64,000 bases of DNA, taken from the IMG/VR virus record IMGVR_UViG_3300050158_000056, positions 30,791 through 94,790 of that record, one strand, 5' to 3'. Origin of the DNA: a virus. Of the stretch, positions 6,852 to 44,401 are shown one piece after another. The position numbers were made by a program, and so were the translations under genes. Below the pieces are notes generated by a model. The model searched no databases and was not told where the DNA came from. It saw only the letters and a list, made by a program, of their open reading frames with translations. Numbering within the stretch: the stretch's first letter is position 1; each line of letters opens with the position of its first letter.

Positions 6852-7506
6852 CTAACGATGTAGTACCCACCATAGCCTGATCTTCTTTATCCTGCTCTAC
6901 AGCGGCCACCAGATCCTTCTTGAGCTCTGGATTGAGGTTGTTCTCCACAAAGAGCTTTTGGATCAGAGCTGAATCATTCCTTACCTTCTTAAAGTAAGCT
7001 AGACTATCAGGAGCTGAGTTAGCAGTAGCTAGATCTCGTAGAGAGGCATCTAGGATCATCATGTCTCTGGTAACATTAGATGTGCGATTCACAGCCGCTG
7101 GTACACTATCACGATTGTTAGTAGTACCTACAGCATCACTCTTAAACCTAGTCCATACTCGATCTAAAAAGTACACCGCTCGTGGGTCTTCTTTACTAAA
7201 GATCACGATTGTGGGATGATACATGTTGATACCCAGACTGAGCTTATACTGGTTATACAAACGATGCATCTCTAGTTTGTAACCAGAGTCCTTATCGTAT
7301 CGTTCTTTGTCGTAATTGAATAAGGGGATATAAGGCTCAAACTGAGCATATGTAATGATGTTAGGACGCTCTGATTCTTCCAGTAGTTTGTTACCTTCTT
7401 TGGCCACGATAGCGGCTAGATGGTTTTTACTGATAGACTCCTTGATCTTATCATGATCCACAGTATCTGGGATAGGGGCATCTTTAATTTCAGGGGGGAT
7501 AGCCAT
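6838..7506 (-). CDS. hypothetical protein
   Basis: 222 aa; overlaps the sbcD start. Confidence 0.7.
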   Translation of the reverse strand: MAIPPEIKDAPIPDTVDHDKIKESISKNHLAAIVAKEGNKLLEESERPNIITYAQFEPYIPLFNYDKERYDKDSGYKLEMHRLYNQYKLSLGINMYHPTIVIFSKEDPRAVYFLDRVWTRFKSDAVGTTNNRDSVPAAVNRTSNVTRDMMILDASLRDLATANSAPDSLAYFKKVRNDSALIQKLFVENNLNPELKKDLVAAVEQDKEDQAMVGTTSLDDDE

Positions 7507-7571
7507 CTACTTAGTATCCTTTTTCGAGTATTACATAGTGTCATATATACCAGAATAATAACTAATGTAGA

Positions 7572-7985
7572 CTACAGATAGCTAGTGAGTAGGTTATTTT
7601 CAGGTATTACGAGTCTACCATTTTTGAGAGATATAGTAGCACCAGTCTGACCGATCTCTCCAGAAAGCATAGTGTAAATGATACTGATAGTGATATCATA
7701 AGTACCACTAGCATCAGTGAGTGCATTGGTTACAGCTACAGTGATCTTACGCTCTGCATCGAAGATACGATTGAAGCATCCCTGTAGGTCACTCTGTATG
7801 TTATTACAGAGCGTATCAGCATCTCTATGAAACTTAGCTACTAGCCAAGGGAGAGATATAATCAGATCTGGTACTATAGGTACAGTGTGTTGAGGGGTCC
7901 TAAAGAACCTATTGAGAGTATAGGCTATAACTGACTGTACGTCATCGACGTATAGTGATCCAGTTAGGCTAGGTACAGTTACCAT
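7572..7985 (-). CDS. conserved phiKZ gp62-like protein (possible gp25-like baseplate wedge fold)
   Basis: 137 aa; VPSL N-terminus; gene order. Confidence 0.5.
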   Translation of the reverse strand: MVTVPSLTGSLYVDDVQSVIAYTLNRFFRTPQHTVPIVPDLIISLPWLVAKFHRDADTLCNNIQSDLQGCFNRIFDAERKITVAVTNALTDASGTYDITISIIYTMLSGEIGQTGATISLKNGRLVIPENNLLTSYL

Positions 7986-8037
7986 GATTTATAACTCCAT
8001 ATATAGATATCATCACATCATGGTTCTGATACTTACC

Positions 8038-8262
8038 TTATAGATATTTCTTAGGACTTATATGACTCGTAGCTTTATCTATATTCGACATATTACGGAA
8101 GAAGCCTTTTCCGAATATACGATCGAATAATGACTCGTTCCTCTGGTCTTCTTTTTCGGATAGTAGCGTATAGACTTCAGCTAACCATTCTCTACGTACA
8201 GTGATCTTGTCGTCAGGATTACCCTGAGACATAGCCTTTGAGGATCCCATATCGATAGCCAT
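8038..8262 (-). CDS. hypothetical protein
   Basis: Likely start MAIDMG with GAGG RBS, inside the 101 aa track ORF. Confidence 0.5.
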   Translation of the reverse strand: MAIDMGSSKAMSQGNPDDKITVRREWLAEVYTLLSEKEDQRNESLFDRIFGKGFFRNMSNIDKATSHISPKKYL

Positions 8263-8263
8263 G

Positions 8264-8593
8264 TCAATACCTCTTGTTAATAGGTATGTAAATATCAGCC
8301 AAATCAAATCGAATGGTGATACTGTGATGGATTTTCTTAACACTAATAGAAGCGAATCTAAAATACCATCCTGGTTTAGCTATGTATTTACCCTCACCTA
8401 CATGATGGATAGCTACTAGTCCAAAACTCCACACTCTATGTAGGGCGTATTCCTCAGAGATCTTATTGTAAGTATAGACACACAATCCTCGAAACTTATA
8501 GAAAGGGAAGAGTCTAATGTGTCCAGCGATAACATTGCTGTTGTCGTACTTCTTGTAGATACCAGGGATACCTGATTCGGTGAATGTGTACAT
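8264..8593 (-). CDS. hypothetical protein
   Basis: 109 aa with AAGGA RBS. Confidence 0.55.
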   Translation of the reverse strand: MYTFTESGIPGIYKKYDNSNVIAGHIRLFPFYKFRGLCVYTYNKISEEYALHRVWSFGLVAIHHVGEGKYIAKPGWYFRFASISVKKIHHSITIRFDLADIYIPINKRY

Positions 8594-8627
8594 AATTACA
8601 TCCTTGTATCAGTAAAAAATAATGGAT

Positions 8628-8655
8628 GATAGTGGGGGTACATACCCCCACTATC
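8628..8655 (-). terminator. hairpin terminator with offset U-run
   Basis: gatagtgggggta/tacccccactatc; A6 on + at 8614-8619. Confidence 0.75.
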
Positions 8656-8664
8656 TGTATTTGA

Positions 8665-9279
8665 TTAGCCTCTACTCATTTCGATCGATGTCGGATCTCG
8701 ATCAGTCTTAGCTAGGATCTTATCACGGATAAAGTCCCTAGTCTTATTGATCGCATATAGCTCATCGTCTGTCAGATCGGGATCATCTGTATAACTAGTA
8801 CCAGAGATATCATACCACCCATCTTCATCACTATCACGTAACACATCGTGACATGTGAAGTTCTCGATGAGTCGTCCATAAACGTCCTCAGTTGGCAGCC
8901 AATCTGAATCCCATCCGAATCCTTCCATACGACCTTCCCTGACAGCCTTCAGGACAGGCTCATACATGAGGATCGGTATCTCCATCCGCAGTGGGATGGT
9001 CTTAAAGTCATCGATAGTACTCAAGATACGAATGTTATCCGGATTCATAATCGCATTAACCGTCCTAGAGATATCTAGGCCGAGCTGATCCATAGGAGCC
9101 ACATATCGACTGAAGAACTCCTGTCGTAAATGACCAAAGTCCTCCCCGAAGAAGCTTCTATGCCCCCCATTATTTATCGAGTTAAATACTTCATTACTGA
9201 CTCTCGAACCAGTAAGTACGCCCAGTGAAGGCATAGCGTTGCCTGAGCCTATTGTGATGGTGTCGTGAATTCTAGCCAT
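8665..9279 (-). CDS. phiKZ gp59-like core protein (Imp3-like)
   Basis: IRILSTIDDF..MYEPV..GRMEGF..YGRLIE..DPTS pattern; downstream of the beta' subunit gene. Confidence 0.55.
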   Translation of the reverse strand: MARIHDTITIGSGNAMPSLGVLTGSRVSNEVFNSINNGGHRSFFGEDFGHLRQEFFSRYVAPMDQLGLDISRTVNAIMNPDNIRILSTIDDFKTIPLRMEIPILMYEPVLKAVREGRMEGFGWDSDWLPTEDVYGRLIENFTCHDVLRDSDEDGWYDISGTSYTDDPDLTDDELYAINKTRDFIRDKILAKTDRDPTSIEMSRG

Positions 9280-9363
9280 CTGGTGTTCCTTATTATAAAG
9301 ATGTCATCTCCTAACATCATTGGACTTAGGAACTAAATTAGTTTTTGATAATTCCTAGTTAGT

Positions 9364-9387
9364 GACAGGGGTCATCTGACCCCTGTC
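9364..9387. terminator. hairpin terminator
   Basis: gacaggggtca/tgacccctgtc. Confidence 0.7.
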
Positions 9388-9411
9388 TTTTTGTGTATTC
9401 ACAGTATTCTC

Positions 9412-9463
9412 TTCGACCAGAGTATGGTCAAATCGTCCGTAAAAAGCTATTAATACTAATAGT
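9412..9463 (-). repeat. displaced duplicate of the RNAP beta' gene 3' end (other copy 10581-10632)
   Basis: Encodes TISINSFLRTI* versus exon 2 TVTINSFLRNL*; both copies end with TGGTCGAA the same distance past the stop. Confidence 0.85.
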
Positions 9464-9464
9464 G

Positions 9465-10526
9465 TCATTGACTATCATTCTTGATTTTACTTATAGTACT
9501 CAGTGATACCTGATAGTCGGAAGCGATCTCACGATAAGATCTAGGATCGTTTTTGATAGATTCCGCTTTTTCCGGATCTACCGGGCGACCTCGCTTGTTA
9601 TTATTCTGCTCTGTCCAGGTGGCCCACCTGCAGTTATCAGGACTATAACCTTTGTAATTATCGATGCGATCGATGGTCAGGTTCTCTTGATAGCCATGAG
9701 CCATAGACCAGTCATAGAACGCCTGAAAAGAGGCTCTCCATTCTGGACATACACCGATACCTCTGCCACCATAAGCAGGATAATTTGTGGAGTTTATATT
9801 CGTACATCGTTGTACTATACCACTCCAGATATTGTAGATACGGGTACCAAACATACCATGTGTTTTATGATTATTAGAAGCAGTCTCTTTGGCGTAACAC
9901 CCACAAGAAACAGTACCACCCCGCATTAAGTTGTTATAATTAACCACGGCGGTATTACCACACTCACACTGGCACTTGTATCTTGATCTACCTTGTTTAT
10001 TGGGACCATCGTATTCTACCACAGTTAACCTACCAAATACCTTTCCGATGACAGATTTTCTGACTTCATCTGCTTTCTTTTTAGTACTTTCGGAAGTCCG
10101 TTCTTTGTTATAACAACCACATGATTGGGTATTACCACTCACGAGATCGTGTCCTCTGACCGATACAGAATTACCACATTCGCATGCGCACTCGTATATG
10201 GAAAGTTTATTACCCACCCCACTAAACGATTTGACAGTTAATCTACCGAAAGTTTTACCTATCATCGATTCTCTTAGTTTGGCGTTCCTGACTTCTCTGA
10301 CTTTCGCCAGTGCTTCTCGTGATAAACACCCACATGATCTCGTAAGTTGTTTGGTTAGACTATATGTGTTAGTTATTCTGATATTACCACATTCGCACTG
10401 ACATACCCAGAGATTAGTTCGATGATTACCCCTCCCTTTGAAATACAATACTTTAAGTCGTCCGAATGTCTGACCCGTTAGATCTATACTCCCATTCGCT
10501 AGCTTTATATTAGTAGGACCAATCAT
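9465..10526 (-). CDS. free-standing HNH homing endonuclease with three Cys-rich N-terminal repeats
   Basis: 3x G.TFGRL.V..C.CECGN..SCGC; YGGRGI..W..TIDRIDN..GYSPDNCRWAT; C-terminal HTH-like segment. Confidence 0.9.
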   Translation of the reverse strand: MIGPTNIKLANGSIDLTGQTFGRLKVLYFKGRGNHRTNLWVCQCECGNIRITNTYSLTKQLTRSCGCLSREALAKVREVRNAKLRESMIGKTFGRLTVKSFSGVGNKLSIYECACECGNSVSVRGHDLVSGNTQSCGCYNKERTSESTKKKADEVRKSVIGKVFGRLTVVEYDGPNKQGRSRYKCQCECGNTAVVNYNNLMRGGTVSCGCYAKETASNNHKTHGMFGTRIYNIWSGIVQRCTNINSTNYPAYGGRGIGVCPEWRASFQAFYDWSMAHGYQENLTIDRIDNYKGYSPDNCRWATWTEQNNNKRGRPVDPEKAESIKNDPRSYREIASDYQVSLSTISKIKNDSQ

Positions 10527-10544
10527 AGTTCATCCCTAGAGAGT

Positions 10545-10578
10545 AGATAGAGGTAGAAATAAATCACTACCTCTATCT
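10545..10578 (-). terminator. hairpin between the RNAP stop and the HNH RBS
   Basis: agatagaggtag/ctacctctatct. Confidence 0.55.
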
Positions 10579-10596
10579 TGTTCGACCATATTATAG

Positions 10597-10761
10597 TCAA
10601 AGATTACGTAAGAATGAATTTATAGTAACGGTCAACGTCTTATGTAAACTGATCTCAGACGACACAGATCCGCTGTTTCTATCGAATATAAAATTAGCGG
10701 GCGATAGATTCTTCATCGCCCTTACCATATCTACTTCTGGAATTAATATTCCAGCTAGACT
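10597..10761 (-). CDS. nvRNAP beta' N-terminal subunit, exon 2 (54 aa)
   Basis: SLAGILIPEVDMVRAMKNLSPANFIFDRNSGSVSSEISLHKTLTVTINSFLRNL*; joins in frame after NADFDGD and is preceded by the terminal G of the intron. Confidence 0.85.
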   Translation of the reverse strand, partial: SLAGILIPEVDMVRAMKNLSPANFIFDRNSGSVSSEISLHKTLTVTINSFLRNL

Positions 10762-12571
10762 CGTTATGTTCAGCATAGCTCGTTAGGCTATACTCGCACC
10801 ATGACGTGCAGCTACTCCTCTCAGAGCAGACCAGATCATATCTTCACCTTTACTCATCTGAGTATTAAGGGCCCACCACTTCGGACTCACGCGAGTCCTA
10901 CTCCCTCTCGGGATGATCGTTGGAGTTTCTACATATCTCATAGAAGACTTAGTAGCTTACCTGCGGATTGAGCAATCTCACATATCTTTTACCGTACCGT
11001 AGGGATTAGCTACGCCATCAGCTATATTTCTATACTGACTTGGTGTATGGAGCTCTAAGCTTGTTCCCGTCAATTCAATGGGTTATTTTACTTATCATTT
11101 CTGATAAGGGCGACCTGTCTATATTTAGTATAATTTGATGATTTCTTTAGGATAGTCTTTTAGATCGATATGCGCGAAAACCCAATCGCGCCATCGACAT
11201 GGTGGTTTCTTACAGTGCTTTATATATCTAGCGATTACCGCTGGATCGCATCTACTAGGTCTATCTTCATTAGACCAACTGGTGATATTGGTGTAATACC
11301 GCACAGATCCATACTGATCAGTTATCTTAATAGGTCGATCAGATGCATGTATGTTAGAATATATGTTCAGTACATCTTGTGGATATATAGGCCACGTCAA
11401 TTCCTCGCGATTACCCGCAGATTGAAAACATCTACCTCTCCACGGAATCAACTCATCACTATCGAGTAGTCTGAATAATGTGTGATCAGTGATATCCTGT
11501 TCTCTGATAACATCAGTTATATTGTCGTATACGAGTACTTTTCGAGTATCCATACGCATACATGCAATTTTGTTTGGTGGAACTCGTCTCTGTACTGGCC
11601 CAGATGCAGTTAACTCATCCCATGATCTAGAATCTGAGGTATATTTAAAAACATACCCTTTATAAGGTCGTCCTTCGTAAGGTCTTCTGTCCATCACAGA
11701 ATGCGCTGAGCCAGGTGCTACCCCGAGATATCTGGCCATGTCATGATACCCAGAAAATATCTGTTCCTGCCCAGTAGCAAGATTCTTACCTACTATCTTT
11801 CGGATAGTTTCGCCTCTAGGACCTTCATTGAACGAATGAAAGTTATTGTCCGTATATGTAGCCCATTCTAAATTGGATATAGCATTATTCCGTTTATCAC
11901 TGTCCCTGTGATTCACGGTGAGGTGGACTGTGTCGATAGGATGAGATATAAAAGCTAACGCAATAACTCTATGCCATCTTAACCGTCGTTGGGTGTTTGG
12001 TATATTGATAGTACAATAACCATCTCCAGTTGGTTTATACCCAATCTCCCGATACGTTGCGGCGCATCTTGCTAATGGTACACCATTATGCAGTCTCACC
12101 TCTATCTCTGGATGATTAGGTACTGATATCCAAGTAGTAGTACCAAAATCAATTCCCAGTAGCGGATTTGGCCTATACCACTCATCGCTCCACTCTAGAT
12201 TAGAGATATGGATATTATCCTTATTACCATCCACAAACCTTACAGACATCCATTCGGGATCTTTATCTGGAGACAGTGGCTTGTAGGTCAGTAACATCAG
12301 TCTATCTAAAGGATGAGATGACGGTTTGTGAGATTTACCTCTAATCTTTACAGCACGTTTTCCGTGATGATTACGGTACTCTGGTATTACTGCATTGGTG
12401 GATATCAGACGGACTACACCATGTTCGTCGATATCATACATTGGGTTTGTAGGTATTTTCATGAAACTTTTCCTTAGTATGCAATTGGGTTTCATACTAA
12501 GGTATAAAAACTATCCTTATTTTGTTATATAAAATAACTTAAGTCATCAAATAACTATATTAAGAGGTCAA
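10762..12571 (-). mobile_element. group I self-splicing intron with HNH ORF in the P1 loop
   Basis: 5' exon GGCGAU pairs with IGS GUCGCC (11109-11114) with U-G at the splice site. P10: UAGAC (11117-11121) pairs with exon 2 GUCUA. P2: CUUAUCA-GAAA-UGAUAAG. P: AAUUGACGGGAA (11064-11075). Q: AAUCCGCAG (10961-10969). R/S form P7 GAUCAU/AUGAUC (10913-10918, 10834-10839). Ends in G at 10762. Confidence 0.9.
11125..12495 (-). CDS. intron-encoded HNH homing endonuclease (NUMOD4/HNH type)
   Basis: HRVIALAF..VNHRDSDKRNNAISNLEW plus a degenerate first HNH-like copy (FVDGNKDNIHISNLEW). Confidence 0.88.
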   Translation of the reverse strand: MKPNCILRKSFMKIPTNPMYDIDEHGVVRLISTNAVIPEYRNHHGKRAVKIRGKSHKPSSHPLDRLMLLTYKPLSPDKDPEWMSVRFVDGNKDNIHISNLEWSDEWYRPNPLLGIDFGTTTWISVPNHPEIEVRLHNGVPLARCAATYREIGYKPTGDGYCTINIPNTQRRLRWHRVIALAFISHPIDTVHLTVNHRDSDKRNNAISNLEWATYTDNNFHSFNEGPRGETIRKIVGKNLATGQEQIFSGYHDMARYLGVAPGSAHSVMDRRPYEGRPYKGYVFKYTSDSRSWDELTASGPVQRRVPPNKIACMRMDTRKVLVYDNITDVIREQDITDHTLFRLLDSDELIPWRGRCFQSAGNREELTWPIYPQDVLNIYSNIHASDRPIKITDQYGSVRYYTNITSWSNEDRPSRCDPAVIARYIKHCKKPPCRWRDWVFAHIDLKDYPKEIIKLY

Positions 12572-13858
12572 ATCGCCGTCAAAATCGGCATTTTGAAGAG
12601 CTACATCCAAAGGACTCATACCTACGGCACTGTCTTCTAGATCAGTCTTAATCCTAGTCCAGTATTTTAACATCACTGAACCATCTCTGATCGAAGGAGG
12701 TCTGTCCCACAAACAGGGTATACCTGGAAATGGAGATTCTTCGATCATCTGATCCATGATCTCTTTAATCAGTGGATCGAATGTATTAAGGGCTGTACGC
12801 ACTTTACTAAATGCGACATTCACATTCATGTCGTATCGTTTACACAAACGACCGATGATGTGTACTCGTAGAGTGTTTACTGCCATCTTCCATGGAATGT
12901 GGAGTTCATAGTACTGATGAGGTCCTACGATCGGTACGATCACACCTCGGAACGACCAGTGAAATCTAGCACCGAAGATATGTGTACGAGGGATAGCCTT
13001 TTTCGTAGCTACATACTTCTTGGTGGCTTCTTCTACATAGTCGATGATGTTCTTAAATGCTTTAAACGCGATGCGCTCAGCATAGATGGTTTGGTTCTTT
13101 CGTTTCTTAGGAGCAAACTCTAGCCTAGATAGAGATACAGCTGCTTTCATGATGTGGTCAGCGGTGGTATCACTATAGCGCTTCTTATTGGGTCCACCAC
13201 CTTCTTGTGTGATGATAGGATTGATTGCAGCATTGAGGATAGGGATATAGTGACAGAAGACGATGTCTTTGTAGAGTTCGATGCAGAACTTCATAGACAG
13301 AGTATCTGGCTTCTTAGAGATTACTGGATGATCGAAGTAGAAGAAGTTCATGATCCTATCAAAGTTATCGTACAAGTAGTTAAAGCCTCTACCATCGATG
13401 ATACCGATGAGGTCGAACGGTAGTACCGAGTCTACATCTAGGATATCATCTAGATAGTTTCGTTTACCTTTGTCGTACGACAACCATGCTGCCAGGTTAA
13501 GATATAACTTAGGTGCGAGCCATCCATTAGGTAGCTCTTTAGGAGCCATGAGCCAGTTTCGACAGATGAGATTGTCTTCGTCCAAGATATTGCGTTTGGA
13601 TACCTTAGTTTCACAGACCGGACACGTCATGTCGATCTTATTATTACCCTCAGTGTGACCACATTGACACTTTGCAATGAAATCGGCCCCAGTCCCATCT
13701 GAGAAAATTAGATCACTGAGTTGGTCGATATAATCCGTATCAGTAAGGTCAAATTTATTCAGAATGATCGGGTCTATATCAGATCTATTAAGTACTAGAT
13801 TAAACTGATCATCGTGAGAAACCAATTTCAGAACTCGTTTTGTGTCATCGCTCAGCAC
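12572..13858 (-). CDS. nvRNAP beta' N-terminal subunit (phiKZ gp55-like), exon 1
   Basis: Zn-finger CQCG..CPVC, FRGVIVP, RPPS; catalytic NADFDGD at the exon end; spliced product 483 aa. Confidence 0.92.
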
Positions 13859-13891
13859 AATGATTCTCCTTCTATTATGAATACCAAAACA

Positions 13892-13918
13892 GTAATATAG
13901 CGATTCATCGCTGATGAG
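13892..13918 (-). promoter_or_regulatory. Early promoter CTCA-N15-TATATTAC
   Basis: TATATTAC 13892-13899 (-); CTCA 13915-13918. Confidence 0.75.
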
Positions 13919-13921
13919 AGA

Positions 13922-14377
13922 TTAGCTTGCGCACTTCTTAAGTATACATTGCGCCAATGAATGAGCGACTGCGCTATCTAGTGCGCTTACCGTACACCAC
14001 TCGATATAAATATACATTCGATCAGGGTCGGTGGTGGACAGTTGTTTCTTGTTCTTCACTACTCCAGGGATACCTCTAGCTGAGCTAACTATGTCCCCCA
14101 CTATGATTTTGTCATAAGGGATACTACTGAGCGGGACCCACGATGTATCTCTGATTGAGTCTTTATTTCCTACGTAAAATACATCTAAGCTATCCGCTGC
14201 AAAATTATTCAACACGACTTTATCTTCGAACTCTATACTGACTCTATTTCTAAACTTACCAGTTCTGCACCCCTGAAGACTATCTGTGGCAGAGATTCTA
14301 CCATCGCTATGTATTGCGCAGTATACTTTATCGCCAACAACTACGTCGCTGAATTTAGTATATTTCAGAAGTTTCAT
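13922..14377 (-). CDS. hypothetical protein with two VGD.V repeats (KOW/SH3-like?)
   Basis: VVVGDKVYC and IIVGDIVSS. Confidence 0.6.
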   Translation of the reverse strand: MKLLKYTKFSDVVVGDKVYCAIHSDGRISATDSLQGCRTGKFRNRVSIEFEDKVVLNNFAADSLDVFYVGNKDSIRDTSWVPLSSIPYDKIIVGDIVSSARGIPGVVKNKKQLSTTDPDRMYIYIEWCTVSALDSAVAHSLAQCILKKCAS

Positions 14378-14811
14378 GAGGCTAGCTCGGGACTAGTCGT
14401 AGGAGGTTTACCTAAGTAGTACAGATCACTGCACTCACTGACTGGAACACTAAGATTACTATCATAACAGTCGTATTTTAGGATCAATATATTATCAGTA
14501 TCATCGATAGTCTGTACTGTGGCTATATGACCTCCGGATCTCACCGATGAACACACTAAGTCTCCTACCTTTATAGTATTCAGTGGAGTCAACCTGACTC
14601 CTACTAGACCGCTAGATCCGATACATACTAGGTCTCTAGTAGATTCTTTTTTGTAGCTATTAGTCCTACCCCCACTCCACGTCACAGACACTCGGGATCC
14701 ATTGATTTTCTTTTTGATACTCGTCAGTACGCCTATCCTAAGTTTGTAGGATGAGTATATTAGGTATCCTACCTTTAGAGTATCCCAATCGATGTCATGT
14801 AGGCTTTTCAT
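14374..14811 (-). CDS. hypothetical protein, paralog-like to the downstream gene
   Basis: LKVGYLIYSS and IKVGDLVCSS; likely start MKSLHDI with GAGGTG RBS. Confidence 0.6.
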   Translation of the reverse strand: MKSLHDIDWDTLKVGYLIYSSYKLRIGVLTSIKKKINGSRVSVTWSGGRTNSYKKESTRDLVCIGSSGLVGVRLTPLNTIKVGDLVCSSVRSGGHIATVQTIDDTDNILILKYDCYDSNLSVPVSECSDLYYLGKPPTTSPELAS

Positions 14812-14812
14812 A

Positions 14813-15280
14813 TCACTCACCTCGTTTAGAAGACAATCTACCAATCTGGAGACCATCGTCAGTGTCGTCGATGGTAGCTATGATGGATTGATTATAGATA
14901 GAGAATACTACTGGACTTGGTTCATCATCGAGGTTTACTTCGGTGTGTTTGGTACCATAAGCTTTTTGTTTGCGGAAGAGTTTCTTGTTAAGTTCATCTC
15001 TTTGATCGATATTGTTGATCAGTAGCGTAGTGTATTCAGTAGTATTCTTATAGATGATATCAGGATATCCTCTAGATGAAAGATCACTGATCTCTACATG
15101 AGCGTTGCCTTCTACTGTGATCTGTTTGGTATTCAGTGTGTTAATTACCACATGCGCGTCTACGACATATAGTTCTTTAGTGAAGACTCGTGGGTAACTT
15201 ACGATCTCATCTGATGTGGTGACACAAGTCAATCCAATTATCGTGGTCGAAGTACCATCGGAGTTTCTGCGAATAAGCAT
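14813..15280 (-). CDS. hypothetical protein
   Basis: 155 aa in operon. Confidence 0.6.
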   Translation of the reverse strand: MLIRRNSDGTSTTIIGLTCVTTSDEIVSYPRVFTKELYVVDAHVVINTLNTKQITVEGNAHVEISDLSSRGYPDIIYKNTTEYTTLLINNIDQRDELNKKLFRKQKAYGTKHTEVNLDDEPSPVVFSIYNQSIIATIDDTDDGLQIGRLSSKRGE

Positions 15281-15297
15281 CTGTGCTTTTTCCTAGA

Positions 15298-15462
15298 TTA
15301 AGTTAGTTTATTTTTAATGTATTTAAATTCAGTGTTATTATCACCTGCTCTCTGACGAGACTTTTTTACCTCGACTATACGACCAGTTATATTTGGTATT
15401 TTTGTGCTAGCATGATCGAGTAGGTGACCAGCCTTAAATACCGAAATCTTTTGTTTAGGCAT
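15298..15462 (-). CDS. small basic early protein (54 aa)
   Basis: MPKQKISVFKAG with GGAG RBS just downstream of an early promoter. Confidence 0.5.
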   Translation of the reverse strand: MPKQKISVFKAGHLLDHASTKIPNITGRIVEVKKSRQRAGDNNTEFKYIKNKLT

Positions 15463-29391: not shown

Positions 29392-30837
29392 TTACTTTTT
29401 AGTAGTACTTACTGACCAGAACTTAGGTTTGTAAGTACCATTTAAAATAGCTAGAATATCAGGCAGGGTCATGAAAGGACGATCCAGTCCTGCAGCTCCC
29501 TTATACGACCACCAGCCTCTAGAACTCAATATATCATCGACTGCATAGCCAGACTTTTGAAGCTGCTCAGCAAATGCATCTATACCGATAGAATAATCTA
29601 CAGGTTGACCCATAAGTGACCAATTGTTCTGAATGACAAAAAGCTGGTAAGTAAGCTCTAGAGCTCTTTCTACTTTGTAAGTCCGAGACAGATCGAAGAT
29701 CTTAGTCCTACCAATATCTAAGTTGTCGAGTAATGGGCTGCGCACTGATCTAGGATTACCTATCCCATAATACTTGTTATTGCGAAGATAGTTGTAATAG
29801 CTAAGGCCAGTCATGATACCGAACCGCTGTGATGATACCATCTGAGTCTGCGATCCTGATGGAGCATTCTTACACCGCACTAGCATCATAGATAGCTCTT
29901 GTAGCTCAGTACCAGATACATGAGTATCTGATGGGTAATCAGTAATAGTGCGATCAGCTGCGCCCACGAGAGCCTTAGTGCTGGAGATTTTAAAGATCGA
30001 TGACATCAGGAAGTTAAACTTAGGACCCATGGCCTTAGTCGTCTCATCCTGGTTCATGTACTGCATGTCTTTCTTGACCGGCTTACCGTCCATGGACTGC
30101 TTCCGACCCAAGTGACCTGTCATGATGCAGTAGATACCAGCCTTAGCACAGATACTAGGTAGCTGGCGCATAAGCCTAGCTTTGTTCCATCCCTCTTCCA
30201 TGAAGATAGTACGCATAGCACTCATTTCAGTACCAGCATTATGTTCTTCATTTTTGATATTGAGTTGGCGCACTAATGCTTCAGTCCAGCTATCGATACC
30301 TACAAATGTCGGGAGCATCATCCGATAGGGTTTACCAGTAGTCGGATCTAGGATCTCAGTCTCTACTTCCCAATCTTTAAACTGCTTGATCTTAGTATCT
30401 CGAAGCTGCTTCATGAAGTCAAACCAAGCATCCAGGTTCTCACCATGATCAGTGGTAGGATCAAATATCTTAATCCTTTTTTCTAGATCAGTGATATGCG
30501 CTTCACGCTTTTCTGGTTCATCGACATAAAGATTAGACATATTGGCCAGACGATTAGTATCGAGAGCCGCATACTCACTATCAAAGTCGTAATACTCTGA
30601 CTCTGGGAATCTAGCCATAGCGTTTACAGCTGTACCATGTAAACACGTCGACTTAAACTTATTGGCATCTGCGATAAATGCAGTGGTCATACCTAGACCA
30701 CCAGACATAGCCCACGTACCAGTGGTAGTAGGTACAAACTTACCATTAGTGATATCTAACGGAGTCCCAGTATTAATATAAGGACGATAGGTGGCGCCAT
30801 CGTCTTCCGATAGACTCATGAGTGTACGAGCATTCAT
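29392..30837 (-). CDS. uvsX: UvsX/RecA-like recombinase (phiKZ gp152-like)
   Basis: RPYINTG..LDI..G, NKFKST (Walker A), FDSE, GIDSW (Walker B), R.KN.PSG, SQ..G. Confidence 0.85.
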   Translation of the reverse strand: MNARTLMSLSEDDGATYRPYINTGTPLDITNGKFVPTTTGTWAMSGGLGMTTAFIADANKFKSTCLHGTAVNAMARFPESEYYDFDSEYAALDTNRLANMSNLYVDEPEKREAHITDLEKRIKIFDPTTDHGENLDAWFDFMKQLRDTKIKQFKDWEVETEILDPTTGKPYRMMLPTFVGIDSWTEALVRQLNIKNEEHNAGTEMSAMRTIFMEEGWNKARLMRQLPSICAKAGIYCIMTGHLGRKQSMDGKPVKKDMQYMNQDETTKAMGPKFNFLMSSIFKISSTKALVGAADRTITDYPSDTHVSGTELQELSMMLVRCKNAPSGSQTQMVSSQRFGIMTGLSYYNYLRNNKYYGIGNPRSVRSPLLDNLDIGRTKIFDLSRTYKVERALELTYQLFVIQNNWSLMGQPVDYSIGIDAFAEQLQKSGYAVDDILSSRGWWSYKGAAGLDRPFMTLPDILAILNGTYKPKFWSVSTTKK

Positions 30838-43390: not shown

Positions 43391-43418
43391 AGATATGGGG
43401 GCAGTTGCCCCCATATCT
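43391..43418. terminator. bidirectional hairpin
   Basis: agatatgggggca/tgcccccatatct. Confidence 0.75.
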
Positions 43419-44401
43419 TACTTTTTATCAATCAACTCATCAATAGAGTATTTTTTAGAGTTAAGTATCACTGCTATTTCATTTGACGTCTTTCCTGACA
43501 GTAGACAAAGCTCAGCTCTAGTGTATGGTTTTAACTTATAGATATACTGTCTACCTGGTTCAAATGGATTGACTACGTAACTAGCTACTTCTGAATTATC
43601 GACGGTGTTCTTCAGTAGCTGTCTACCCGCATCCACATATCTATATTTTACTACCTTAAGATCTATACCAGTAACCGAACTAAGATCAATCAATGACACT
43701 TCTATACCGAGATACCACACAGTCGTATCATCTGGTATACCGAGTTTGTAAGATATATTATTTCTTTTATTATTAGCCTGTTCTAATTGCGTGGCCCAAC
43801 GACAGTTACTAGGCTCATAGTTACCATCCACATCTATACGATCTATGGAGTATTTGTACCTAGGCGCAGGGCGCGGCCCCATATCAGCTATGAAATTAGA
43901 AAACCCATCATCACCACGCCATCTATCACAGACGGTAATACCTCTACCACCATATTTACTATAGTTCGTATCGGTCGGATTGTCACATCGATATTTCATA
44001 CCTTCGTAGATGCGTTTGTCAGGATGCATCTTATCTTTACGATAGTCCTTAGCATACTGCTTACGTGTTTCAGTATTTTCCTGATAATAGATCTTGATCT
44101 TCTTATTTATGTGATCCTCATTGGCCTCTCTGTATACTTTCTTCTTGGCTTTTATTTCAGGGAGATGTTTAGCTCTATAGTCTTTTTGATGACTAGCTCT
44201 ATGTTCGACATGATCGGCTCTCCACTTCTTTTGATAGTTAGCTATGACATCAGTATTATCTACTCTGTACCTTCTTTTGTTTTCTCTTATCTCCGACTTT
44301 TTTCTCTGCCCATATTCTCTATTCCATTCTTTCCTCTTTTGGGTGCATATAGCACACTTACATCTAGTGGTGCCTAAACATGACTCATTAGTTTCGCTCA
44401 T
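43418..44401 (-). CDS. free-standing HNH homing endonuclease
   Basis: YGGRGITVCDRW..SIDRIDVDGNYEPSNCRWAT; N-terminal CKCAIC and K/Y-rich helical repeats. Confidence 0.88.
   Translation of the reverse strand: MSETNESCLGTTRCKCAICTQKRKEWNREYGQRKKSEIRENKRRYRVDNTDVIANYQKKWRADHVEHRASHQKDYRAKHLPEIKAKKKVYREANEDHINKKIKIYYQENTETRKQYAKDYRKDKMHPDKRIYEGMKYRCDNPTDTNYSKYGGRGITVCDRWRGDDGFSNFIADMGPRPAPRYKYSIDRIDVDGNYEPSNCRWATQLEQANNKRNNISYKLGIPDDTTVWYLGIEVSLIDLSSVTGIDLKVVKYRYVDAGRQLLKNTVDNSEVASYVVNPFEPGRQYIYKLKPYTRAELCLLSGKTSNEIAVILNSKKYSIDELIDKK

Follow-up and report, generated by a model that had tools for sequence, protein, structure and literature searches.

When a homing endonuclease invades coding sequence, the usual view is that it either depends on an intron or intein, by which the invaded gene keeps its function, or else splits that gene. 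Yeast WHO elements of Torulaspora and Lachancea home into FBA1, and an end-replacement model has been proposed for them together with cleavage data (Coughlan et al. 2020, PMC7282813); fungal mitochondrial mORFs make 'gene hybrids' of Allomyces macrogynus atp6 and of Glomus sp. atp6, atp9, cox2 and nad3 (PMC3630166). Here, we analyzed a stretch of 64,000 nucleotides (nt), hereafter the window, from IMG/VR virus record IMGVR_UViG_3300050158_000056 (positions 30,791 to 94,790), which belongs to an uncultured giant phage of leaf-litter metagenomes. In this window, a free-standing endonuclease gene lies between two versions of the 3' end of a gene for a phage multisubunit RNA polymerase beta' subunit, with all features of the locus on the minus strand. 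We regard this arrangement as likely to be a homing-endonuclease cassette that replaces the end of its target gene. The phage locus would then represent a third route, in which a spare gene end is carried along.

The layout resembles that of the WHO elements in several respects. In those elements, a free-standing endonuclease gene lies directly 3' of the target gene without splicing. With each integration, the 3' end of the target gives way to a diverged copy that is resistant, and the displaced 3' end persists further downstream as a fragment that forms the right homology arm. Upstream of the cut the alleles share about 99% identity, whereas beyond it they differ strongly (PMC7282813). The nucleases differ: that of WHO is intein-like, of the LAGLIDADG/zinc-finger kind, and belongs to a eukaryotic nucleus with meiosis, whereas that of the phage is a PacI-like 'HNH' protein with CapR-like fingers. 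The replaced tract measures about 415 nt in FBA1 and 55 nt in the phage, which has a single cassette without a cluster of older fragments. Cleavage has been demonstrated for WHO, whereas the phage cassette is known from sequence.

The mORF architecture, also with demonstrated cleavage (PMC3630166, citing Allomyces atp6), consists of an in-phase foreign C-terminus, then the endonuclease open reading frame (ORF), then the native C-terminus, which is near-identical to that of a close relative without the element (PMC3630166). Inserted and native ends share 64–81% DNA identity and are much closer as proteins (PMC3630166), and the phage ends are alike in this respect. The mORF nucleases are of the LAGLIDADG or GIY-YIG type and reside in organellar genomes. 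In many cases their ORF continues the host gene in phase, whereas in the phage a separate stop and hairpins close the gene end and the endonuclease has its own start; in addition, 19 nt of the native end are deleted in the phage.

The free-standing Seg and Mob endonucleases of phage T4 carry out intronless homing (review PMC2988022). As in T4, the endonuclease gene of the window is free-standing and lies beside its presumed target, and its spread would occur by double-strand-break repair in mixed infection, with the flanks co-converted. Seg and Mob genes, in contrast, are intergenic, or they interrupt a gene so that its product is made as two polypeptides (Aeh1 nrdA, T4 gene 60). The review describes no case with a duplicate substitute gene end, and the word 'duplicat' is absent from it (PMC2988022). 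In a further system, the HNH endonuclease gp210, encoded in an intron of PhiPA3, introduces a nick into gp178, a polymerase gene of PhiKZ (Birkholz et al. 2024, PMC11620839). The phage locus would share with it the setting of a nucleus-forming jumbo phage, an endonuclease directed against the essential RNA polymerase gene of a co-infecting relative, and a possible competitive role. The gp210 gene resides in a self-splicing intron, whereas the host gene in the window is kept whole by a substitute end; the window gene has a comparable intron too, but as a separate element. Our literature search found no published phage case of an end-replacement homing cassette. Taken together, the design is one known from mORFs and WHO elements, whereas its setting is new: the genome is that of a phage, the nuclease is a PacI-like 'HNH' protein, and the gene end measures 55 nt. 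The locus adds to the view of jumbo-phage polymerase genes as battlegrounds for selfish nucleases.

Duplicated gene end in filled and empty alleles

The expressed end of the polymerase gene is exon 2 (10597..10761), which comprises 54 codons and a stop and whose translation aligns with the C-termini of uninterrupted homologues. It finishes in SLHKTLTVTINSFLRNL with the stop at 10597, and the conserved C-terminal part is restored. Its last codons (copy A, 10632..10597) read acc gtt act ata aat tca ttc tta cgt aat ctt TGA and encode TVTINSFLRNL. One base past the endonuclease stop lies copy B (9463..9428), which reads act att agt att aat agc ttt tta cgg acg att TGA and encodes TISINSFLRTI. Copy B (9428..9463 in window order) is the stranded native gene end, its last 11 codons and stop, untranslated here and used in the empty allele described below. 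Over 52 nt, made up of 33 coding nt, the stop and 16 nt beyond it, the two copies have an ungapped identity of 37/52. When copy A was slid along both strands of the 64-kb window (about 128,000 placements), copy B was the best placement, and the runner-up reached 30/52.

Both copies carry a small hairpin across the stop codon. Hairpin A lies at 10581..10601 (fold -6.7 kcal/mol, z -4.6) and hairpin B, across the old stop codon, at 9412..9432 (fold -8.9 kcal/mol, z -2.7), with stems of 8–9 bp that include the stop codon. The motif is free of mismatches at these two window sites only, other matches in the window needing 3 mismatches. The 16 nt after the stop are identical at 13/16 positions, and one of the differences changes C:G to U:G within the stem. 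The hairpin is kept better than the coding sequence between the diverged ends, and it is absent in relatives at 47–70% identity. A degenerate 19-nt pattern of the motif matched two viral contigs, both at unrelated loci and close to the chance estimate.

The pre-insertion state of the locus is preserved in sister strains, which is rare. We determined the share of the sampled words of the stretch in each metagenome run and compared contigs of runs X2, X3, X4 and X11 over positions 7000–14500. All runs that contain the stretch are leaf-litter metagenomes. Runs X1 (probably the source of the record), X2 and X3 contained 0.99, 0.66 and 0.45 of the sampled words, and each of the eight runs X4–X11 contained 0.33; an allele without 9464..10651 predicts 613/1801 (0.34). 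X1–X3 contain the filled allele, and the word share of X4–X11 fits an empty one.

Empty-allele contigs were present in X4 (17.5 kb, depth 31.7) and X11 (2.2 kb, depth 12). In both, position 9463 is joined to 10652: 1188 nt are skipped, and the same 19 other bases stand in their place. On the gene strand the joint reads gag at, then ATCCCTCCACAGAAGCCTT, then act att agt, and the 19 bases complete the reading frame. The translation ends in SSEISLHRSLTISINSFLRTI at the stop, directly followed downstream by the hairpins and a gene of 204 amino acids (aa). In these near-identical strains without the endonuclease, the displaced copy is the functional gene end (SLHRSLTISINSFLRTI and stop in the translations of X4 and X11). 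The flanks of the empty allele are 99.9–100% identical to the window. Both contigs show 0 differences across 10652–11131, the X11 contig shows 3 across 7989–9463, and the X4 contig shows 17 across 7000–9463, 14 of them within 7045–7318. The native copy at 9428..9463 lies inside the matched stretch without a listed difference, the nearest listed one being at 9028. In the window, the host gene now finishes on the imported end, and of the native end a remnant of 36 nt remains, unused, immediately after the endonuclease gene, together with all that follows downstream.

The inserted cassette (9464..10651, 1188 nt) is exactly what the X4 and X11 contigs skip. It comprises the substitute gene end, two hairpins and the endonuclease gene, and stands in place of 19 native nt; its border lies 1 nt past the endonuclease stop. 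The second cassette-borne hairpin, a perfect 12-bp stem at 10545..10578, lies between the new gene end and the endonuclease gene (fold of 10540–10612, -24.7 kcal/mol, z -5.3). The imported substitute 3' end of the polymerase gene (10597..10651, finishing in SLHKTLTVTINSFLRNL) was compared with the native end of the empty allele. The replaced end consists of 55 nt (1 nt, 17 codons and the stop, 10651..10597), so that 55 nt stand for 55 nt with the frame kept. Because the first 19 nt of the native end were lost in the filled genome and its last 36 nt survive, the repeat is visible over the last 36 nt only.

An earlier note on this stretch had described a duplicated gene end around a free-standing endonuclease, and the sequence, coordinates and 1-base spacing are as it gave them, the 37/52 match being unique in the window. 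Its statement that both copies keep a small stop-codon hairpin agrees with the 8–9 bp folds and with a motif free of mismatches at A and B only. It had also predicted that endonuclease-less relatives would end with the 9428–9463 copy and run straight into the terminator; the X4 and X11 contigs do so, and the opposite outcome that it named, such relatives carrying the 10597–10632 version, is not seen in them. The empty allele of X4 and X11 shows that the cassette brought in a replacement C-terminus and left the old end stranded. The note's proposal of an invasion of the gene end without splicing is supported, but the extent of about 12 codons has to be corrected: 18 codons were replaced, and 19 native nt were deleted.

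The two alleles could also be ordered in reverse, with the filled form ancestral and the empty form produced by inter-repeat loss of the endonuclease gene, and direct repeats around a gene can indeed mediate deletion. Since the 19 bases are missing from the filled genome, however, the empty allele is not derivable by deletion between the repeats, and the filled form is the derived one. Such recombination cannot make 19 bases unique to the empty allele, and it would be expected to leave a chimeric end; the end of the empty allele instead agrees with the stranded copy over its full length. The endonuclease is also absent at this spot in more distant relatives, and we consider the reverse direction very improbable.

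All of the data are metagenomic assemblies, and one of the two forms might accordingly be a chimeric contig. Against this, the empty joint occurs in two independent runs (depth 31.7 and 12) with the identical 19 bases, the left junction of the filled allele is bridged by contigs of two further runs, X2 (10585–11305) and X3 (10541–10817), and the reading frames are intact in both forms. An assembly artefact is therefore a highly unlikely source of either allele.

A spliced arrangement, with the endonuclease gene inside an undetected intron and the downstream copy as a third exon, would be in keeping with the genuine group I intron with its own endonuclease ORF that lies 1 kb upstream in the same gene, and with the status of jumbo-phage polymerase genes as known intron targets (PMC11620839). 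However, a search of 9400–10600 gave no Rfam match at E<=1 save a chance microRNA. The upstream copy is already complete with its stop, so that splicing would be pointless or would duplicate residues, and the empty allele shows the copies to be alternatives and not consecutive exons. We give this arrangement almost no credence.

Divergence of the imported end and comparison with related loci

Outside the replaced tract the alleles are near-identical, and inside it they are strongly diverged. The imported and native ends are identical at 30/54 nt (24 differ) and at 12/18 residues (6 differ); within the 19-nt stretch, 6/19 bases are shared and 13/19 differ. Identical amino-acid residues are differently encoded in 9/11 cases, both serines included (AGT/TCC and TCA/AGC, an exchange between AGY and TCN). 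Both ends have T-I-N-S-F-L-R where relatives have T-W-N-x-F-L, and this shared motif, together with the stop hairpin, points to a donor from the same sub-lineage. Judged by these codons, the donor was probably distant enough for its synonymous sites to be saturated, so that a relative farther removed is the probable source of the original insertion.

An alignment-based locus search yielded 2 viral and 5 metagenome loci (L002–L008) at 47–70% protein identity, and a single polymerase protein as query found no related locus among viral contigs. The order polymerase gene, 204-aa gene, 137-aa gene and 222-aa gene occurs in 7/7 related loci, and the native gene order is fixed by the 204-aa gene following the polymerase gene in all seven. 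The endonuclease of the window was found between the polymerase and 204-aa genes in 0/7 of them. The gap between these two genes measures 36, 55, 76, 449, 579, 656 and 1544 nt in the relatives and holds varied unrelated small ORFs; by this comparison, the spacer is a hot spot for variable cargo.

The post-stop sequences of the related loci lack the small hairpin, and the loci are therefore too distant to tell which end is native. The imported end scores slightly closer to them than the native end does, a difference that is weightless over 54 nt. A blastn search of the locus against 50,697 phage records returned short intron or HNH patches only, at 70–77%. Because endonuclease homologues in viral contigs are at most 47% identical, the cassette borders are not definable by comparing elements.

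These loci bear on a reading in which recombination with a related phage, ordinary or illegitimate, delivered the endonuclease gene along with the diverged end, the nuclease being passive and the cassette not actively mobile. A spacer that is a general cargo hot spot, with gaps from 36 to 1544 nt, speaks for such a passenger, as do the absence of microhomology at either junction (0 at both), the second family member of the window (43418–44401) without a flanking duplicate, and a nuclease activity that is predicted from sequence. The insertion lies, however, inside a conserved coding stretch of an essential gene and not in the intergenic hot spot, and it keeps both the frame, to the base, and the exact length of the replaced end (55 nt). 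It also abuts the endonuclease stop within 1 nt. Such a layout as a whole would be expected of end replacement driven by a nuclease (PMC7282813, PMC3630166) and would be unlikely by random recombination. We consider passive arrival unlikely, although it deserves more weight than a negligible one, and favor a homing cassette.

The endonuclease and a proposed homing cycle

The free-standing endonuclease gene (9465..10526, 353 aa) has its own start and stop and is located past the stop of the host gene. Its product is predicted to contain three CapR-like Cys4 modules, a PacI-like nuclease domain and a C-terminal helix-turn-helix, the last at residues 313–353 of a structure model with pLDDT 88. 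The family comprises 3947 homologues at E<=1e-10, whose aligned sequences carry between one and four Cys4 modules (FGRLxV...CxCxCGN...SCGC), the window protein having three; one family member reaches the Pfam CapR model. The invariant nuclease motif is I-D-R-I-D...N-C-R-W..E-Q..N, and the window protein keeps every family-invariant residue. The 'HNH' label given in the earlier note has its basis in a match to PHROG 374 'HNH endonuclease' (E 6.6e-105) and in a weak likeness to PacI, the sole sequence match (E 0.071); the protein matched no Pfam family, and no HNH family of Pfam was reached even at E<=10. Foldseek gave PacI a prob of 0.54, and for the whole three-domain model it returned nothing from the PDB at E<=0.001. 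From its residues and its modeled fold, we take the 353-aa protein to be an intact and probably active PacI-like endonuclease with modular DNA-binding fingers.

Two further observations concern this family. A stretch of 68 nt that encodes the nuclease motif (window 9613–9680) is identical in an otherwise unlike contig of X4 and X11; a related endonuclease gene elsewhere in these samples appears to share it. A second family member lies in the window at 43418–44401 on the minus strand (327 aa, 48% identical over the nuclease domain), antisense between plus-strand genes; a gene-end duplicate flanking it was looked for, and none was found.

Following the model for WHO elements, we infer that the endonuclease drives the swap, with a cut site in the stretch that is replaced. 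When two strains infect one cell, the endonuclease would cut the empty allele at the 19-nt stretch (ATCCCTCCACAGAAGCCTT on the gene strand), either inside it or next to it. The break would be repaired off the cassette-bearing genome. Polymerase sequence upstream of 10652 would provide the left homology arm, and the right one would consist of the stranded old end with the downstream DNA (9463 and below). The recipient would acquire the endonuclease gene together with an end that differs at 13/19 bases. Because this substitute end is in frame and diverged, the gene would stay whole without splicing, and the recipient allele would no longer be a target, an immune product. Both alleles co-occur among the leaf-litter runs, which is compatible with homing in mixed infection or with its absence.

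Several points weigh against this account. The phage is known from metagenomes alone, the empty allele is known from assembled contigs and not from raw reads, and the right junction of the filled allele has the window's own assembly as its sole basis. No lineage with the imported end was found as a donor, the A-type end occurring in 0 of about 20 full-length homologues, and the nearest homologue of the endonuclease is 58% identical. The top PDB match, the HNH restriction enzyme PacI (3m7k_A; Z 6.3, root-mean-square deviation 2.7 over 75 aa, model residues 223–312), is middling, with a Z too low to stand alone, and, as read by eye, the nuclease domain has Arg287 (in DRID, family-invariant) in place of the canonical first His of HNH_3. 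The divergence of the imported end, moreover, is of the kind expected for distant relatives with saturated synonymous sites, and 'recoding for immunity' is not required by the data.

A homing cassette that replaces the gene end remains, on balance, the probable explanation of the locus. On a more far-reaching version our opinion is evenly divided: that this would be an active 'cut-and-rescue' element of a nucleus-forming jumbo phage, which breaks the essential non-virion RNA polymerase gene of co-infecting sister strains, with the 18 imported codons as the immunity determinant, and that end-replacement homing without splicing would thereby be known from a phage for the first time, along with natural filled and empty alleles and a predicted target of 19 nt. 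If 'cut-and-rescue' is true, carriers would gain both drive and a competitive weapon. The locus offers a small testable system: the predicted target spans 19 nt, the tract predicted to confer immunity spans 55 nt, and the nuclease, of 353 aa, comes from a very large uncharacterised phage family. It also accounts for an annotation puzzle, in which core genes of phages have short orphan copies of their ends nearby or C-termini of locally extreme divergence. Were the layout common in phages, it would be an overlooked driver of mosaic evolution at gene ends.

Polymerase gene, intron and neighboring genes

Exon 1 (12571..13858) encodes the N-terminal part of the phage multisubunit RNA polymerase beta' subunit; by its ORF and translation, it ends at the catalytic NADFDGD loop. 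The ORF itself (13858..12560) terminates in NADFDGDLTS. In tblastn searches the polymerase resembles jumbo-phage genes annotated as non-virion RNA polymerase beta' (Noxifer, RAY), and its homologues in metagenomes (n=52) are at most 73% identical. The beta' homologues fall into two length classes, one of about 482 aa that is uninterrupted and one of about 430 aa that stops at the NADFDGD loop.

The group I intron (10762..12570) follows directly after DFDGD, its exon borders being taken from the alignment with uninterrupted homologues. The Rfam Intron_gpI core lies at 11150..10812 (52 bits, E 2.4e-11), and the intron carries its own ORF at 12495..11125 (Pfam HNH_3, E 7.6e-11). Intron and HNH_3 ORF form an element distinct from the end-replacing cassette.

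The X4 and X11 contigs differ from the window at this intron as well. Window 11131–12588, which covers the region of the intron HNH_3 ORF and the last 18 nt of exon 1, is unmatched in them at >=85%, a 38-nt patch at 87% being the sole match within it. On the exon 1 side (12588–14500) there is 1 difference, and in the intron core and exon 2 (10652–11131) there are 0. The gap at 11131–12588 is a second endonuclease-linked polymorphism of one gene between near-identical phages. In the relatives (P0006–P0044 and L002–L008), beta' ORFs break after PNA, PNAD or DFDGD in the catalytic loop; these varied break points suggest independent intron insertion sites within a few codons. Locus L005 holds a homologue of the window's intron endonuclease, 57% identical.

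In 3' direction from exon 2, the locus presents the stop-codon hairpin, the 12-bp hairpin, the 353-aa ORF, the second gene-end copy, a G+C-rich hairpin and the 204-aa gene. The G+C-rich hairpin (9364..9387, 10 bp) is terminator-like and lies 3' of the native gene end, with no strand assigned and a T run on the plus strand. A sigma-70 promoter scan of the locus gave results at chance level and is not relevant for a phage with its own polymerases. The conserved downstream gene (8665..9279, 204 aa) belongs to no family; its position after the polymerase gene in 7/7 related loci was read from tblastn synteny.

Partial second copies of this 204-aa gene were seen in two of the related loci. In L006 (8487–10892), a 270-aa ORF (10080–10892) ends with about 60 residues that copy residues 136–195 of the neighboring homologue of the 204-aa gene, an identical 12-aa run included, and an endonuclease of the same family as that of the window (9167–10000) lies between this ORF and that homologue. 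L002 has a similar partial second copy at 15212–15370. In both loci, the second copy is fused in frame to a different N-terminal region of 200 aa. Judging from these sequences, the L006 and L002 copies may represent a domain-sharing paralogue or another product of an end swap.

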